In this document: positions 2,648 to 46,310 of the stretch, one piece after another
How positions within the stretch are numbered: the stretch's first letter is position 1
How the letters are laid out: each line of letters begins with the position of its first letter
Source: a bacterium
Lineage (GTDB): Bacteria; Patescibacteriota; CPR2; UBA1875; JAJYID01
Assembly: GCA_030647205.1 (NCBI GenBank)
Contig: JAUSJO010000005.1
Span: forward strand, 138,523 to 202,522
Direction: 5' to 3'
Length of the DNA stretch: 64,000 bases
Made by a program: the position numbers and the translations under genes
Notes under the pieces: generated by a model
The model's database searches: none
The model's input: the letters and a program-made list of their open reading frames with translations, nothing else
What the model was told of the DNA's origin: nothing

Positions 2648-3292
2648 ATGACAGATGATAAAGAAAAAAAAGTAGATAGTATCTCCGGGAAGGACGGCAA
2701 AACTTTCTATAGGTCCGTGGCAACGGGAACGATGAGTATGGATCTATCGGAGAGAGAAGCTATCGACAGAGGTTGGGGCTGGGCAGTCACTATGGGTATT
2801 GTAATGATAGTCCTTGGCGCGTTGGCTGTAGTCTATCCGATTGTAACATCAGTAGGTGTGACATTTCTTCTGGGTGTAGTCCTTGTGGTGGCAGGTGTGG
2901 CGCAGTTAGTACAGGCCTTTAGCGTTCGTGGATGGAGCGGCTTTTTCTGGCACACCTTGGTAGCTATAACTTATGCCGTCATCGGAGTGCTACTACTCAC
3001 ATATCCTCTGGGCGGACTTGTGACGCTTACATTTCTACTGGCTCTTTACCTCCTGATTTCCGGTGTTTTCAAGGTAGTAATTTCGCTCTCGTCAAGAGAA
3101 GTATCGGGTTGGGGATGGATGCTGACAAGCGGAATATTGTCGGTGATACTTGGAGTGCTAGTCTGGGCAAGCTGGCCGGTTGGGTCGCTATGGTTTATCG
3201 GCCTTTTGGTCGGTATCGATCTGGTGCTTGTAGGATTTTCGCTTTCTGCGATGGCGCTATCGGCGCATTCTCGTGAACAGGAGGAGATGTAA
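2648..3292 (+). CDS. HdeD/DUF308-like multi-pass membrane protein
   Basis: 214 aa with repeated GWGW...LGxLxxxxP transmembrane segments typical of the DUF308/HdeD family. The N-terminus is Lys-rich with GKDGKTFYR. The RBS is gaaaggaggtgag. Confidence 0.5.
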   Translation: MTDDKEKKVDSISGKDGKTFYRSVATGTMSMDLSEREAIDRGWGWAVTMGIVMIVLGALAVVYPIVTSVGVTFLLGVVLVVAGVAQLVQAFSVRGWSGFFWHTLVAITYAVIGVLLLTYPLGGLVTLTFLLALYLLISGVFKVVISLSSREVSGWGWMLTSGILSVILGVLVWASWPVGSLWFIGLLVGIDLVLVGFSLSAMALSAHSREQEEM

Positions 3293-10317: not shown

Positions 10318-10625
10318 GTCATTCCGACCGATACCACGTTAGTGGAAAGTGGAGGAATCCCTTTCCCTTGTCATTCCCGCGGAGGCGGGAATCCAGCCTT
10401 TCTTTAAATAATTTCCACTTTTTTAGAAAAAGTAGAGCAAAAATCGCGGCTTAGACGGCCTCTCAAAGTATAACTCAAAACTTCTCTCAAATTTGAAAAA
10501 TGACAACAAGCCGATTCCGGAAGTCATCTTTTCAAAAGTTCGTTCAGCTTTTCGTTCTCTTTTCGAGCCGATAGCCGCAAAGAGAGGCTTCTTTTCAAAA
10601 ACCATGCCAGAGGAGAGAGTGGAAA
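10318..10625 (+). repeat. Copy 3 of the mosaic intergenic repeat
   Basis: gtcattccgacc...ggaggaatccc, gtcattcccgcggaggcgggaatccag, ccacttttttagaaaaagtagagcaaaaatcgcggcttagacgg, tttgaaaaatgacaacaagccgattccggaag... The last 3 blocks match copy 2 and copy 5, and the first 2 blocks match copy 4. Confidence 0.85.
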
Positions 10626-16889: not shown

Positions 16890-17222
16890 GTCATTCCGAC
16901 CGATTTCCTGAAAGGACGAGCGGAGGAATCCCTTTCCCCGTATGTCATTCCCGCGGAGGCGGGAATCCAGACTTTAAAATACTCTATCTACTTTTTTAGA
17001 AAAAGTAGAATCAAAAATCCCCGACTAGCACTATGAAATAGATAAAACTAATAAAAATTTATCATTCAAAACAGCAACCACTCCGTTTAATACTGCTTTT
17101 GTCCTTCGGAACATTCTAAATTTTTAAGTTTTATCCACTATTTCTCCGTGATGTCGGGAGAGAACAAAAATCACGCCGAGAAGAACCTCATTCCGTCATC
17201 CTGAGGCACGAAGGATCTCTCC
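16890..17222 (+). repeat. Copy 4 of the mosaic intergenic repeat
   Basis: gtcattccgaccgatttcctgaaaggacgagcggaggaatccc, gtcattcccgcggaggcgggaatccag, ctacttttttagaaaaagtagaatcaaaaatcc, and a tail ttctccgtgatgtcggga...aaaaatcacgccg...gtcatcctgaggcacgaaggatct that is shared with copies 1 and 2. Confidence 0.85.
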
Positions 17223-26369: not shown

Positions 26370-26478
26370 ATATTTTGAAGTTGAAATTATTTTCCTATAG
26401 CGTTTGAATTATAGCAAAAAAGAAAGTATAATTGAACAGGTTTTTATTATCAACGATAACTGTTATCAAAAGGAAAAA

Positions 26479-27657
26479 ATGTCAAAAGCGATCGAAAAAC
26501 TTTTAAATAAAAATGTTGAAGAAGTTATTGTAAAGAAAGATTTAGAAAAGCTTCTTTTATCGGGCAAGAAACTTAGAATTTATATAGGGGTTGATCCGTC
26601 AAGTCCGGTTATCCATATTGGCCATGCGGTAGGCTTAAGGAAACTGAGGGAATTTCAGGATTTGGGGCATAAAGTCATTTTCTTAATAGGAGATTTCACT
26701 GGCAGAATCGGTGATCCATCGGGCAAGACCAATCAAAGGGTTCCTTTGACGGAAGAAGAAGTTCTGGAGAACGCTAAAACATATCTTGATCAAGCGTCTA
26801 AAATTATCGACATAAAAAAGGCGGAGATTCGTTACAACGCTGAGTGGCTGGACAAACTTACTTTCAAAGATGTCGTAATGCTTGCTTCAAACTTTACAGT
26901 TCAGCAAATGATTGAGCGTGACATGTTTAAGGAAAGATTAAAAACGAATAAACCAATCGGATTACACGAGTTTCTGTATCCTTTAATGGTGGGTTACGAC
27001 TCAGTTGCTTTAGATGTAGACATAGAAATGGGTGGCACCGACCAGACATTTAACATGCTGGCCGGCAGAACTCTGATGAAAACGATGAAAGGAAAAGAAA
27101 AACATGTCTTGAGCGTTCCGCTGCTTCTTGGTACTGATGGCCGGAAGATGAGCAAAAGTTACGGTAATGTCATAGGCGTAGATGATCCGGCCGATGATAT
27201 GTTTGGTAAGGTTATGAGTATAAAAGATGAGCTCATCATTCAATATTTTGAGCTTTGTACGGATAGAGATGATGAAGAGATAAAGGAAATTACCAAGAAG
27301 CTTAAAGGTGGAGAAAATCCTCGCAATCTAAAGTTTGAGTTAGCGAAAGATATTGTGACCACCTATCATAGTTCAAAAGCAGCAGAGACGGCAGGTCAAG
27401 AATTCGAGAAAATATTCAAAGACAAAGGCAAACCTACAGATATGCCGAAAGTCAGTTATTCAAAAGGCGACAAACTGGTTGATGTTTTGGTTGAGTCAAA
27501 GATAGTGGATTCAAAGTCAGAGGTTCGAAGATTGATCCAGCAAAATGGCGTGAAAGATAATGATGAAACAGTCACCGATATTGACTACACACTCGCAAAT
27601 GGAAAACATACGGTTCAAGTTGGGAAGAGACGGTTTGTAGAACTATCAGAAAAATAA
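26479..27657 (+). CDS. tyrS: Tyrosyl-tRNA synthetase
   Basis: Class I motifs (HIGHAVG, KMSKS), a TyrRS core and a C-terminal S4-like domain. RBS aaggaaaa before the ATG at 26479. The track start at 26404 lacks an RBS. Confidence 0.85.
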   Translation: MSKAIEKLLNKNVEEVIVKKDLEKLLLSGKKLRIYIGVDPSSPVIHIGHAVGLRKLREFQDLGHKVIFLIGDFTGRIGDPSGKTNQRVPLTEEEVLENAKTYLDQASKIIDIKKAEIRYNAEWLDKLTFKDVVMLASNFTVQQMIERDMFKERLKTNKPIGLHEFLYPLMVGYDSVALDVDIEMGGTDQTFNMLAGRTLMKTMKGKEKHVLSVPLLLGTDGRKMSKSYGNVIGVDDPADDMFGKVMSIKDELIIQYFELCTDRDDEEIKEITKKLKGGENPRNLKFELAKDIVTTYHSSKAAETAGQEFEKIFKDKGKPTDMPKVSYSKGDKLVDVLVESKIVDSKSEVRRLIQQNGVKDNDETVTDIDYTLANGKHTVQVGKRRFVELSEK

Positions 27658-27670
27658 TTTAATTTAAAAT

Positions 27671-29821
27671 ATGAATAGCCCTATAACGCTTAAAACTACA
27701 GTTTCGCAGCTTCAGGGGGTGGGCTCGGTATATCAAAAGAAACTGGAAAAACTTCACGTAGACACAGTTGAAGACTTGCTTTTGTATTTGCCGAGAACTT
27801 GGGAAGACTTTTCTAAGATTACGGAAATTGCCAAAGTCAGACCGCCGGGAACTTACTGTATACAGGGAAATATCTGGAGTATCGGTAACAAACGCTCGGT
27901 AAGAAGGCGGATGTCGATAACCGAGGCTATCATTGCCGATAAAACCGGAACCATGAAAGCAGTCTGGTTCAACCAGCCATTTCTCATAAAAAATATGAAG
28001 CAGGGTGATGAGATTTTACTTGCCGGAAGAGTAGAAAATGAATATGGCAAAATTCTCATGAAGTCGCCGGCGTATGAGAAAAAGTCCGATGAACAGACGC
28101 ATTTGGGAAAGATAGTCCCGACTTATAAAGAAACTGATGGCCTATCCTCTCGCTGGCTCAGATATCAGATAACTAAGCTGGTGAAGATCATTTACTCTTT
28201 CAAAGAGTACTTACCGGCTGATGTGATAAAAAACCAAAGTTTGATTAGCTACTCTGCCATGATTCGCCAGCTTCACTTCCCCGATAACTCATATCAGCTG
28301 GAAAAAGCGATAGATCGTCTAAACTTCGACGAGATGTTCCTCTTACAAGTTGCAGTCCAAAATCAGAGGAAGACACTCGATAAAAACCGAGCAATCTCAG
28401 TCCAGTTTAATGAGGAGTTGTCAAAAGAATTCGTCAAAAGCCTAGGATTTACGCTTACCACAGCTCAGAAAAAATCCATTTGGGAGATAATCAAAGATCT
28501 TGAAAAGCCCACTCCGATGAATAGACTTCTTGAGGGTGATGTTGGGTCAGGGAAAACCGTAGTGTCGGCAATGGCAACTTTGATGGTAGCTCGTAATGGA
28601 TTTCAAACGGTATTTTTGGCGCCCACAGAGATTCTCGCCAAACAGCACTATGAATCTTTGAAGAAAATGCTGGAACCATTTGGTGTAAGAGTTGCCTTAC
28701 TTACTGGCAAAAAAGCCCTCCTTCCTTCCGTCATTCCCGCCCCACCTTCTGTCATTCCCGCGGAGGCGGGAATCCAGTCATCACTGAAAGAGGAAAACGT
28801 GAAATCAAAAAAATCAGTGGAAGCCGAGGTTTTAAAACAGGCCAAAGAAGGGGAGATACAGGTTCTTGTCGGTACTCACGCAGTACTTAAAGAAGACATA
28901 GACTTTTGGAGCTTGGCATTCGTGATAGTTGATGAACAGCATAGATTTGGAGTAGGACAGCGCGCTAAATTACGCCAAAAATCAGGGTCAGATGGAACGA
29001 TGCCGCACTTCCTTTCAATGTCAGCAACACCAATCCCGCGGACTCTGACACTTTCGGTTTACGGTGATCTGGATATCTCGGTGATTGACGAGATGCCGCC
29101 GGGGAGGAAGAAAGTAGCGACATTCGTAATTCCACCAGAAAAGAAAGAAGATTCATATGAATTCATTCGCCAGACTGTGAAAAAGGGGAGACAGGTTTTT
29201 GTCATCTGTCCGCTGATAGATGACTCAGAAAATATGGAGCTTCGAAGCGTCACCGCAGAGTATGAGAGATTATCCAGAATGGTATTTACCGATCTCAAAA
29301 TCGCCATGATTCACGGGAAGATGAGACCGGAGGAAAAAGAAAGAATCATGAGCGACTTTGCGACCGGCAAGACAAACATCCTTGTTTCGACATCTTTGGT
29401 TGAGGTTGGTGTCGATGTGCCAAATGCGACTATCATGATTATCGAGGGCGCTGATAGATTTGGTTTGGCACAACTGCATCAGTTCCGCGGAAGAGTTGGT
29501 AGGGGAAAGTACCAGTCATATTGTTTCCTTTTCACCGACAACCAGTCTGAAACTGTTCAGAAAAGACTCGATGCGATAACTAAAACAAATGATGGGTTTA
29601 AAATTGCTGAGAAAGATCTGGAAATAAGAGGACCGGGTGAAGTTCTCGGCGAACGCCAGCACGGTCTGCCGGATATCAAGACTCAGAATCTAATGAATGT
29701 AGAGCTGATAAAAAGAACAAAAACCGAAGCCAAAAACTTCCTGAAGAAAAATGAAGTAAATGATTTCCCGTTACTCGCAGAGAAAATCTCTAAATATGAT
29801 GGGGTAGCAAATCTGGAGTAG
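27671..29821 (+). CDS. recG: ATP-dependent DNA helicase RecG, carrying an in-frame repeat insertion
   Basis: Wedge domain, helicase motifs (GDVGSGKT, DEQHRFG, SATPIPRT), and a C-terminal domain. About 25 extra residues (LLPSVIPAPPSVIPAEAGIQS...) are encoded by 28718-28780. Confidence 0.92.
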   Translation: MNSPITLKTTVSQLQGVGSVYQKKLEKLHVDTVEDLLLYLPRTWEDFSKITEIAKVRPPGTYCIQGNIWSIGNKRSVRRRMSITEAIIADKTGTMKAVWFNQPFLIKNMKQGDEILLAGRVENEYGKILMKSPAYEKKSDEQTHLGKIVPTYKETDGLSSRWLRYQITKLVKIIYSFKEYLPADVIKNQSLISYSAMIRQLHFPDNSYQLEKAIDRLNFDEMFLLQVAVQNQRKTLDKNRAISVQFNEELSKEFVKSLGFTLTTAQKKSIWEIIKDLEKPTPMNRLLEGDVGSGKTVVSAMATLMVARNGFQTVFLAPTEILAKQHYESLKKMLEPFGVRVALLTGKKALLPSVIPAPPSVIPAEAGIQSSLKEENVKSKKSVEAEVLKQAKEGEIQVLVGTHAVLKEDIDFWSLAFVIVDEQHRFGVGQRAKLRQKSGSDGTMPHFLSMSATPIPRTLTLSVYGDLDISVIDEMPPGRKKVATFVIPPEKKEDSYEFIRQTVKKGRQVFVICPLIDDSENMELRSVTAEYERLSRMVFTDLKIAMIHGKMRPEEKERIMSDFATGKTNILVSTSLVEVGVDVPNATIMIIEGADRFGLAQLHQFRGRVGRGKYQSYCFLFTDNQSETVQKRLDAITKTNDGFKIAEKDLEIRGPGEVLGERQHGLPDIKTQNLMNVELIKRTKTEAKNFLKKNEVNDFPLLAEKISKYDGVANLE
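28718..28780 (+). repeat. Fragment of the dispersed palindromic repeat inserted in frame within recG
   Basis: ccgtcattcccgccccaccttctgtcattcccgcggaggcgggaatccag. The 27-mer gtcattcccgcggaggcgggaatccag is identical to the intergenic copies at 10377-10403 and 16947-16973. Confidence 0.85.
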
Positions 29822-29834
29822 TTGCAAAAAACTC

Positions 29835-29864
29835 TTGTAACACGAACGAGACATATGTTATAAT
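29835..29864 (+). promoter_or_regulatory. Promoter for the HTH-doc operon
   Basis: ttgtaa, 18 nt, tataat. Confidence 0.5.
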
Positions 29865-29893
29865 CATTACATAAGTCAAAGGAATGTTATAAA

Positions 29894-30148
29894 ATGGAAA
29901 AATCAAAGTTCATTAGTGTCAAAGAGGCAATGGATATAACTGGATATTCTCGTGTTCATGTTATCCGGCTTATTAATGATGGGAAAATACAAGCAGAGAA
30001 AGTGGGCCATACCTATATGGTTGATAGGAATTCACTCGGCGGGATTTACAAGGAAATGACAGAAGCGGATAAGAAAAAAGTTACAGAGGCAGTAGATAGG
30101 ACTTTCAAGGAATATGGAGACGTTCTAAAAAGGTTGGGTAAAGAATAA
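29894..30148 (+). CDS. Helix-turn-helix (excisionase/MerR-like) putative antitoxin
   Basis: ISVKEAMDITGYSRVHVIRLINDGKI HTH motif. The stop overlaps the start of the Doc gene (ATGA). Confidence 0.6.
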   Translation: MEKSKFISVKEAMDITGYSRVHVIRLINDGKIQAEKVGHTYMVDRNSLGGIYKEMTEADKKKVTEAVDRTFKEYGDVLKRLGKE

Positions 30149-30564
30149 TGAAGCCGGTAACTATCCAGGAAGTAGAGCTGATAGCTCATAAGCTGGCCAA
30201 GAAAATGATGACTTGGAATGAACCGATTCCTGACTTTGGCACTCGCTATCCGGGTATCCTAGAAAGCTGTCTGGCAAATGCCTTTCAAACATATGCCAAA
30301 AAGGATCTATACCCGACGCTAGAAGATAAAGCGGCGATTATTTTCTATCAAATGATTAAAAACCATCCCTTTGTGAATGGCAACAAGCGCATTGCCGTAA
30401 CGACACTTTTTACCTTTTTGGTAATTAACGATAAGTGGCTAGACGTGCAAAGAGAGGATCTTTATCGTGTGGCGGTGTGGGTCGCAGAAAGCCCGGCGCC
30501 ACTTAAGGATGGGACACTCTTGGCGATAAAAGATTTAGTTAAGCTTACCATGGAGGATGCTTGA
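30148..30564 (+). CDS. doc: Doc (death-on-curing) / Fic-fold toxin
   Basis: Signature HPFVNGNKR (Doc motif HxFx(D/N)GNKR). 138 aa. Confidence 0.75.
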   Translation: MKPVTIQEVELIAHKLAKKMMTWNEPIPDFGTRYPGILESCLANAFQTYAKKDLYPTLEDKAAIIFYQMIKNHPFVNGNKRIAVTTLFTFLVINDKWLDVQREDLYRVAVWVAESPAPLKDGTLLAIKDLVKLTMEDA

Positions 30565-31682
30565 AAAATCAGGAAAATATAGAAGAAGAAAGCAACTCTA
30601 AGGGCATTACAATTGGTGTTGGAGGAATACCATTCCCTTATGTTGACTACCTTAAATCCTATCAGAGAAATATAGACCAAATATATGTCTCATCGGGAAT
30701 AAAGGCTATTAGCGATTTAAATAGGAGTATTTTACCCAATATCTCTAGTCCGCTGTATAAAGGTCTAAGGGATTCTTTGAGCATACAAGAGTCCTTAATT
30801 CAGGGGCTTCAAAGGGTGGGAAAGGACCTCACTCTGTCTTCGAATTTAATGCAGGAAACGTCAAAGAATCTAATTGTGCCTTTAGATAGGGCAATCAGTA
30901 ATTTGGGTGGGTTGGCAGATGCACTGGAGGGTACGCCGTATTTACGAGGCGTAAAATTGACCAGCTCTCTTGTTGGTTCTTTGGAAGTTCAGCAAAGTCA
31001 AATATTACATGGATTAAAAACTATTTCTACTAAGAATGACTTGACCAAGTTTACAAATGTAATAAATCCGGGTATTTCTTTATTTTCTTCAGGCATTTCT
31101 AAGATAGTGGACTCGACTTCCGTTTTTGAAAATACACTTGTAAAGGAAGAAAAATCAGAGAGAGCAGAAAGACCAGACAGCAAGGAACAACAGAAGCTTG
31201 ATGAAATATTGAACGGGATAAACACTAAATTTGTCGAACGAAGAAAGGCCTGTTGGGAGACATTTTCTAAAAAGGGCAACGATTATATAGGTCAGTCCGC
31301 AAGTTCAATGAGGAGACTAATAGATGGGTTACTTAGAGAACTGGCCCCAAGGGAAGCAGTCCAACAAACGGAATTTTACAAAAAAAGAATTCAAAATTAT
31401 AATGAAAAAACACTAGAAGAAAAATCGAAGGTTACGAGGAAAGATCGTATTTATTACATATTGGATTATGATAAGAATGAGAGAGACGATATTTTTAAGA
31501 GGGTTATCAAAGTTATTGAATCGATAGTGGAAACACTAGATCACCTAAATGCATGGGATCACGAACCCATTGATGAAGATGGGTTTGTGTGCGGAGTATT
31601 CATAACAATAGAAGGTCAGCTGCTTGCCTTATTATCGATGCGGGATAGTATTGCTATAGAAAAAGGGCAGAATAAGATATAA
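30561..31682 (+). CDS. Hypothetical 373-aa protein translationally coupled to doc
   Basis: A 4-nt overlap with the doc stop. Alpha-helical, with no membrane segments. The C-terminal half has ERRKACWETF...MRRLIDGLLRELAP. Confidence 0.5.
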   Translation: MKNQENIEEESNSKGITIGVGGIPFPYVDYLKSYQRNIDQIYVSSGIKAISDLNRSILPNISSPLYKGLRDSLSIQESLIQGLQRVGKDLTLSSNLMQETSKNLIVPLDRAISNLGGLADALEGTPYLRGVKLTSSLVGSLEVQQSQILHGLKTISTKNDLTKFTNVINPGISLFSSGISKIVDSTSVFENTLVKEEKSERAERPDSKEQQKLDEILNGINTKFVERRKACWETFSKKGNDYIGQSASSMRRLIDGLLRELAPREAVQQTEFYKKRIQNYNEKTLEEKSKVTRKDRIYYILDYDKNERDDIFKRVIKVIESIVETLDHLNAWDHEPIDEDGFVCGVFITIEGQLLALLSMRDSIAIEKGQNKI

Positions 31683-31713
31683 TAATTAATATAAGAATAA
31701 GAGGAGATAAAAA

Positions 31714-32001
31714 ATGAATCAACAACCACAACAACAAGTACAAATCAAGGCTGATGACCAGACGGCCAAAGGTGTATACACCAACAACTTAATCATTGGT
31801 CACACAAAAGAGGAGTTTGTGCTGGATTTTCTAAATGTGTTCCCACCACAGGGAGCACTGGTTTCTCGTGTATTCACAAGTCCGGGTCATGCAAAAAGAA
31901 TTGTAAAAGCGCTTGAAGAGAATGTAAAAAAATACGAAAAGCAGTTTGGTAAAATAGAAGAGTCGGAAGCTCCTGACGGCGATATCGGTTTTAAGGCCTA
32001 A
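31714..32001 (+). CDS. DUF3467-like small protein
   Basis: Q-rich N-terminus then GVYTNNLIIGHTKEEFVLDF, a pattern typical of DUF3467. RBS gaggag. Confidence 0.55.
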   Translation: MNQQPQQQVQIKADDQTAKGVYTNNLIIGHTKEEFVLDFLNVFPPQGALVSRVFTSPGHAKRIVKALEENVKKYEKQFGKIEESEAPDGDIGFKA

Positions 32002-32008
32002 TAAAAAG

Positions 32009-32035
32009 GCGCCCCTTGCGGGGGCGCCGAGTAGA
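32009..32035. terminator. Bidirectional terminator
   Basis: ggcgcccc ttgc ggggcgcc with flanking A/T runs, between convergent genes. Confidence 0.65.
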
Positions 32036-46012: not shown

Positions 46013-46310
46013 GTCATTCTGGTTTGGTCAGAATCGTATTTGTCATCCTGATGTACGAAGGATCTCATCCTCTCATTCCCACTTTCATCTGTCATTCCCG
46101 CGGAGACGGGAACCCAGTTTTGAATTATTTCCACTTTTTTAGAAAAAGTGGAGCAAAAATCGCGGCTTAGACGGTCTCTCAAAGTATCGTCTGGTTCGCT
46201 CTCTCATCTTTAAAAAAATTAACTCGCTTCTCTCAAACAAAATTCTTTTTAAAGGTTCGTTCACTCCCAGACTTTCTTTTCGAGCCGATAGCCGCAAGAG
46301 ATGCCCTAGA
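46013..46310 (+). repeat. Copy 5 of the mosaic intergenic repeat
   Basis: gtcattctggtttggtcagaat, gtcatcctgatgtacgaaggatct, gtcattcccgcggagacgggaacccag, ccacttttttagaaaaagtggagcaaaaatcgcggcttagacgg, and a module ending ttttcgagccgatagccgcaagag as in copy 3. Confidence 0.85.

Follow-up and report, generated by a model that had tools for sequence, protein, structure and literature searches.

Known systems and the array studied

The toxin considered here has its nearest described counterparts in the Phd-Doc pair of phage P1 and in chromosomal type II Doc pairs (TIGR01550). Kinase-type Doc proteins carry the motif H-x-F-x-(D/N)-(A/G)-N-K-R, in which K stands in place of the G of AMPylating Fic proteins. 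PrrC and RloC represent another kind of system, namely abortive-infection nucleases embedded in type I restriction-modification (R-M) loci. Pairs of a PIN toxin and a truncated MerR-like helix-turn-helix (HTH) antitoxin have been described (Makarova et al. 2009, PMC2701414), and EcbAgaN, the nuclease partner of long-B Argonaute, contains an alpha-helical domain of unknown ancestry (PMC10620215, PMC13535254). Here we analyse an array of four + strand genes at positions 29835-32001 of a 64,000-nt stretch of DNA (the window: contig JAUSJO010000005.1 of assembly GCA_030647205.1, positions 138,523 to 202,522 of the forward strand) from a bacterium of the patescibacterial lineage CPR2. The genes code for an 84-aa HTH protein, a Doc-family toxin, a 373-aa protein and a DUF3467 protein. 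The original prediction, made from the sequence alone, suggested that the large third gene might be a functional partner of the HTH-Doc pair.

The 373-aa protein carries the pP_pnuc_1 domain (PF18165, "predicted pPIWI-associating nuclease"), and the small protein belongs to the HTH_17 family (PF12728). We examined gene neighbourhoods of relatives on both sides of the supposed partnership. Eight matches in species genomes of GTDB and 22 metagenome loci were condensed at 90% nucleotide identity to 21 independent pP_pnuc_1 loci; Doc contexts were sampled in five independent loci, all that were retrievable. Searches with the window proteins (tblastn), together with a scan for Fic/Doc motifs, detected neither Doc nor HTH_17 beside the pP_pnuc_1 gene in any of the 21 loci, and no pP_pnuc_1 gene was present in any of the five Doc loci. 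A recurrent HTH-Doc-X triplet was thus not found in this sample; absence of homologues of the third gene next to Doc was the very outcome that the original prediction had named as speaking against it. Relatives of the 373-aa gene are instead single genes dispersed among R-M operons and other anti-phage genes.

We consider it probable that the array combines two independent units, an autoregulated HTH-Doc module and a stand-alone defence-island gene juxtaposed with it, the two being co-transcribed by accident of insertion. The units would sit side by side between recG and the DUF3467 gene. The 373-aa gene would have landed directly behind doc, where it is probably read from the toxin-antitoxin promoter and may be translationally coupled. 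Judged from the neighbourhoods compared, this coupling appears to be lineage-specific and not a conserved mechanism.

Coupling within the array

All four predicted open reading frames (ORFs) were recovered: the HTH gene (29894-30148), doc (138 aa, 30148-30564), the 373-aa gene (30561-31682) and the DUF3467 gene (95 aa, 31714-32001; DUF3467 match 5.5e-24). Two of their junctions had to be corrected. The HTH and doc genes overlap by 1 nt in TAATG (30146-30150) and not in ATGA, and the gap in front of the DUF3467 gene measures 31 nt, not 30 nt. The 4-nt overlap by which the 373-aa gene begins before doc has ended (TTGA) is present as described, conditional on the TTG start of the former. Over about 70 further codons no in-frame start is available, and an independent gene caller chose the same TTG on an identical contig; alignment with homologues begins at about residue 45 of the protein. 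A Shine-Dalgarno sequence, GGAGG (30552-30556, + strand), can be read inside the 3' end of doc, 4 nt before the TTG.

The 1-nt and 4-nt overlaps, together with the Shine-Dalgarno sequence inside doc, favour a true three-component system, in which HTH-Doc regulates or senses for the pP_pnuc_1 protein, or the 373-aa protein modulates Doc. The same is true for transcription signals. As had been predicted, a promoter-like site precedes the array, TTGTAA-18-TG-TATAAT with an extended -10 (29835-29864, + strand, 10/12 consensus matches), which would serve as its promoter. Between it and the 373-aa gene we found a single weak promoter-like match (9/12), overlapping the HTH start, and the signal scan detected no + strand terminator ahead of the 373-aa gene. 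Co-transcription of the HTH, doc and 373-aa genes, as originally proposed, is thus likely. Further, there is a match between the Doc domain and the C-terminal region of the PADLOC defence candidates PDC-S23, and one other lineage has a Fic-superfamily gene in the neighbourhood of pP_pnuc_1.

These points are opposed by the neighbourhood counts given above. The window Doc and HTH proteins are equal in length to those of pairs without a third gene, and therefore show no sign of co-adaptation to one. Overlap of a Doc gene with its downstream neighbour is also seen elsewhere: a relative of the window Doc overlaps an unrelated PAP2 gene, likewise by 4 nt. Since 6 of the 52 co-directional neighbour pairs in the 64-kb window overlap (longest-ORF starts), the 4-nt Doc/373-aa overlap is on its own weak evidence for a functional link. 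The Fic gene of the other lineage codes for a different protein, 309 aa long and of AMPylase type (HPFNDGNGR); a 92-aa SNF2-helicase fragment separates it from the pP_pnuc_1 copy, which is truncated to 151 aa. We therefore regard a three-component system as unlikely. In its regulatory form, a labile antitoxin would be lost in infection and the operon de-repressed, so that Doc and the effector are released. It is similarly doubtful, and at present speculative, that HTH-Doc has been co-opted in the window's lineage to switch on abortive infection by a unit of three genes, loss of the antitoxin releasing Doc and boosting the pP_pnuc_1 effector, or that, separately, the patescibacterial pP_pnuc_1 subfamily is a new single-gene anti-phage effector for whose fold our searches gave no match among solved structures. 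The tripartite Doc system as proposed does not hold up, and the importance of the locus is limited in that respect.

Several observations nevertheless weigh against a division into two independent units. HTH-Doc and the 373-aa gene are physically one operon here, as follows from the 4-nt overlap, from the position of the Shine-Dalgarno sequence within doc and from the fact that the 373-aa gene has no strong promoter of its own. There is accordingly a small chance that the pair and the 373-aa protein are functionally linked in the window's lineage. Our sample comprises 5 Doc contexts and 21 pP_pnuc_1 contexts. In one of the latter groups the Fic gene mentioned above lies two genes upstream of the truncated pP_pnuc_1 gene (locus L018, 4768-6492). 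This stretch sits between two TPR genes in a Gribaldobacteria genome, and the loci of the group (L018 and L042-L045), being 99.6-100% identical, represent one lineage; it looks like a decaying defence island and not like a conserved pair. No defence neighbour could be recognised in six or seven of the 21 loci, although several of these lie on short contigs. Finally, both the nuclease activity and the defence role attributed to the 373-aa protein are predicted from its family name and genomic neighbourhood.

The HTH-Doc pair

Identification of the toxin proved sound. The protein scores above the cut-offs of both Doc profiles, PF02661 (1.4e-12, 48.7 bits against a cut-off of 24) and TIGR01550 DOC_P1 (3e-14, 53.2 bits against 38.65), and the motif HPFVNGNKR (residues 73-81) is invariant across 30 aligned homologues. 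As in the Phd-Doc and chromosomal Doc pairs, the toxin is a small single-domain protein bearing the kinase-type motif H-x-F-x-N-G-N-K-R, and the start of its gene is overlapped by that of a small partner upstream. A palindromic site lies over the promoter and may point to autoregulation, as in those pairs. The difference lies in the predicted antitoxin, which has a MerR/excisionase-type HTH (PF12728, 7e-7) and not the Phd/YefM fold. Because the partner is an HTH_17 protein and had no PhdYeFM match in Pfam, the pair has another antitoxin class and is not strictly Phd-Doc. The MerR-like HTH/PIN pairs employ the same class of short MerR-superfamily HTH as type II antitoxin, the toxin being PIN there and Doc in the window, and exemplify how antitoxin and toxin families are known to be reshuffled. 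As such antitoxins are already known with PIN toxins, swapping of the antitoxin class is ordinary.

The Doc subfamily comprises more than 2,196 proteins, to which the window Doc is 60-72% identical; the 120 matches listed span 59-94% identity, and some sources label members of the subfamily as death-on-curing toxins. In all five independent relative loci, a HTH_17 gene of 83-88 aa abuts Doc upstream, the two either overlapping by 1 nt or lying 1-2 nt apart, and these partners are 44-50% identical to the window HTH protein. What follows Doc is different in each case: Methyltransf_21, PAP2, unknown genes or the contig end, mutually unrelated. The HTH antitoxin had been called atypical, but it was the partner in every sampled member (5 loci) of this subfamily. 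That the HTH and Doc proteins form a toxin-antitoxin pair is, on the other hand, supported by the conserved abutting genes and by a shared upstream palindrome. Conserved pairing, overlap, an operator-like site and varied downstream genes are what one would expect of a type II module that consists of two genes and probably controls its own expression. No experimental description of a HTH_17-Doc pair was found in the papers searched.

The putative operator of the window (29851-29892, + strand) consists of a palindromic core ACATATGT at 29851-29858, overlapping the -10, and a direct repeat ATGTTATAA at 29855-29863 and 29884-29892. Palindromes of the GTTAACATATGTTAAC type are located directly upstream of the HTH gene in four relative loci from unrelated metagenomes (L019, L020, L022 and L023), the first of which has three copies (3137-3250). 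The window retains only the ACATATGT core and the two ATGTTATAA repeats. Based on this recurrence, the GTTAACATATGTTAAC-type palindrome is likely to be the operator of a large HTH_17-Doc subfamily, and the HTH protein is predicted to bind the corresponding site in the window. The HTH_17-Doc pairs appear as a very large and well-conserved toxin-antitoxin subfamily with a recognisable putative operator.

A related sequence was noticed outside the promoter region. Towards the 5' end of the 373-aa gene, AATATATGTCTC (30680-30691) agrees in 11/12 positions with the inverted complement of GAGACATATGTT, found at 29848-29859 in the putative operator region; this may be a chance match.

By analogy with its family, Doc would be a kinase-type Fic-fold toxin that phosphorylates EF-Tu and stops translation. 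The 84-aa protein, as the predicted antitoxin and autorepressor, may bind the putative palindromic operator over the -10 by its N-terminal MerR/excisionase-type HTH and neutralise Doc by its C-terminal ~35 residues.

The HTH protein could also be the excisionase of a mobile element, and the region a remnant of the integrated element. Its best NCBIfam and PHROG matches are indeed excisionase families, and housekeeping genes flank the region. The match to TIGR01764 "excise" (8.5e-6), however, reaches 26 bits and stays below the cut-off of 28.8. In the five loci the HTH gene is strictly paired with Doc, start and stop overlapping, and an operator-like palindrome is shared, all of which is at odds with an excisionase. 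So is the surrounding sequence, as no flanking direct repeats or target-site duplications were found around the unit. Among 2.9 million viral contigs a single weak Doc-family match was obtained, so the HTH-Doc pair is not notably phage-borne. Taken together, we regard the excisionase origin as highly improbable. No marked GC anomaly was found around the unit either (0.36-0.42, surroundings ~0.40). Only one other contig has the exact DUF3467 protein, and it is 100% identical to the window, so that the comparison yielded no strain that lacks the insert.

The 373-aa protein

The third gene product had been described as an all-helical protein of unknown function. It is all-helical in the structural model; it does, however, contain a recognisable domain, PF18165 matching residues 221-334 with 4.4e-13 (score 49.5 bits, cut-off 26.3). 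The domain region occupies the C-terminal 165 aa (residues ~205-367; 31173-31661, + strand). Further, the PADLOC profile PDLC02413 "Aga_Nuclease" matches with 3.5e-7, partially, over 64 of 267 profile positions. The protein thus resembles the PF18165 and PDLC02413 families in having a C-terminal domain above the Pfam cut-off that keeps the conserved residues of the family. In its N-terminus, a bundle of four long helices, it departs from the wider family, where a winged HTH is common.

The AlphaFold2 model (50-sequence alignment; pLDDT 82.3, pTM 0.81) consists of disordered residues 1-41, four long helices within ~43-185 (~64-185 by narrower limits) and a compact helical C-terminal domain, which modelled alone (110 sequences) reached pLDDT 93.7. 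Alignments of pP_pnuc_1 proteins, which are ~20-30% identical, reveal the invariant or near-invariant residues W232, D241, Q245, S249, R251, R293, H334 and E351. Foldseek, proposed originally as a check, returned nothing at E <= 0.001 from PDB (full and domain models) or BFVD, only generic helical bundles, and profile searches of PDB sequences with pP_pnuc_1 gave only coiled-coil noise. The R-x(4-6)-H motif of HEPN proteins is absent, the invariant H334 being located in L-N-A-W-D-H, and the HEPN structures 2q00 and 2hsb were matched by Foldseek only non-significantly (E = 4-6). Because there is neither a structural match nor the HEPN motif, "nuclease" stays a prediction contained in the family name. 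Literature searches for PF18165, pP_pnuc_1 and "pPIWI-associating nuclease" found nothing.

The most likely role of the 373-aa protein would be that of an effector in defence or abortive infection, with nucleic acid as its target and the conserved D/Q/S-x-R/R/H/E residues as the acting ones. Alternatively, it may be a regulatory, scaffolding or nucleic-acid-binding helical protein, its defence-island setting reflecting general accumulation of accessory genes. The nature of the nuclease label and the lack of both a nuclease fold match and the HEPN motif agree with this, as do the many proteins in which the domain is fused to a DNA-binding winged HTH and the absence of a PHROG match for the protein. 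Yet polar residues D241, Q245, S249, R251, H334 and E351 remain invariant at ~20-30% identity, a pattern that active sites typically show, and the gene is found inside R-M operons in two lineages and beside defence genes in 14 of the 21 loci. A role outside both nuclease activity and defence thus seems rather unlikely to us.

Two described proteins were considered as relatives. EcbAgaN, a candidate source of the names "Aga" and "pPIWI-associated", proved unrelated: it contains only REase_DpnII-MboI according to Pfam and no PF18165; its sequence (supplement of PMC10620215) aligned to the pP_pnuc_1 profile with hhalign probability of 0.1%. Agap-HEPN (PMC11162769) was judged an unlikely relative by motif comparison only, its R262-x4-H267 motif being absent from pP_pnuc_1.

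Genomic neighbourhood of the 373-aa relatives

A word-indexed search of a 5.8-billion-protein set yielded 9 relatives of the 373-aa protein, 10 when the profile was used. Exhaustive HMMER search of 1.84 billion cluster representatives gave 40 matches at E <= 1e-30, mostly full length, and 533 matches at domain level. All 110 aligned relatives match PF18165. The domain is nearly always C-terminal with variable N-termini, which contain a winged HTH in about 18 of the 110. All eight matches in GTDB species genomes are Patescibacteria. The searches indicate a rare subfamily, seen in assembled genomes only in this group.

Ten of the 21 independent loci contain R-M or restriction genes, and four more contain Pycsar, HEPN, Panacea or long Fic genes. 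In two lineages the pP_pnuc_1 gene is part of a type I R-M locus, being inserted between hsdM and hsdS or following hsdR-hsdM/S. Other loci include Mrr; a Pycsar pair (PycTM and cyclase); EcoO109I R-M with a weak PIN-like match; AAA_21/RloB with DpnI; a Type ISP gene with AAA_21/RloB and HTH-Panacea; HEPN_Swt1; a C5-methylase/Eco57I fusion; a helicase with REase_MTES_1575, an M.Eco57I-type gene, N6/N4 methylase and GIY-YIG; and SocA_Panacea. The suggestion that the third gene might be a defence component is consequently plausible, given the predicted-nuclease domain and relatives in R-M and other defence neighbourhoods.

The neighbours themselves are varied. In an all-against-all comparison of the first 14 loci only type I R-M methyltransferase and specificity genes recurred, and no small partner was detected. 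Only hsdM and the AAA_21/RloB pair, each in two lineages, are neighbour families common to different lineages. No PIWI domain was present among those neighbours with Pfam hits or otherwise scanned in the 21 loci and the window, the scan not extending to every ORF; contrary to what the family name implies, no PIWI or Argonaute gene was thus seen beside the relatives or the window gene.

The placing of relatives within type I hsd operons or at their ends is reminiscent of PrrC and RloC. The 373-aa protein is, however, unrelated in sequence to these nucleases and lacks an ABC-ATPase domain, and the window copy adjoins no R-M gene. The domain is nevertheless of interest: it is uncharacterised, confidently modelled and without a structural relative in PDB (Foldseek), and it recurs inside R-M operons of Patescibacteria, a group about whose defences against phages little is known. 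Screens for defence genes could reasonably include it.

In the two independent loci with the pair of AAA_21 ATPase and RloB-like genes (L015, 4022-5784; L041, 1729-3494), this pair directly precedes the pP_pnuc_1 gene.

Flanking genes and repeats

Upstream of the array are tyrS (26404-27657) and recG (27671-29821). On the downstream side, the DUF3467 gene had been counted as part of the unit. Searches with tblastn detected no DUF3467 gene near Doc or pP_pnuc_1 relatives in any locus; it recurs with neither. It probably shares the transcript, as an unrelated neighbour belonging to neither module. The best promoter-like match of the region, TTTACA-17-TATAAT (31375-31403, 11/12), precedes the DUF3467 gene by ~310 nt, falling within the 3' third of the 373-aa gene, and could provide DUF3467 with a separate transcript. 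An all-GC hairpin with an 8-bp stem (32008-32028) follows the array. It had been taken for a bidirectional terminator, but its T-run is on the - strand only: the convergent gene thus has a canonical terminator here, whereas on the + strand the hairpin lacks a U-tract.

Further, the window contains four copies of a palindromic repeat, GTCATTCCCGCGGAGGCGGGAATCCA (10370-10395, 16944-16969, 28751-28776 and 46091-46113), against 0.13 expected by chance, and a half-copy at 28730-28741. Three copies are intergenic. The copy at 28751 is situated in frame within recG, where it adds PSVIPAPPSVIPAEAGIQSS and leaves the 716-aa ORF intact. In-frame insertion of miniature palindromic elements has been described for Rickettsia palindromic elements, and the recG copy resembles such an insertion.

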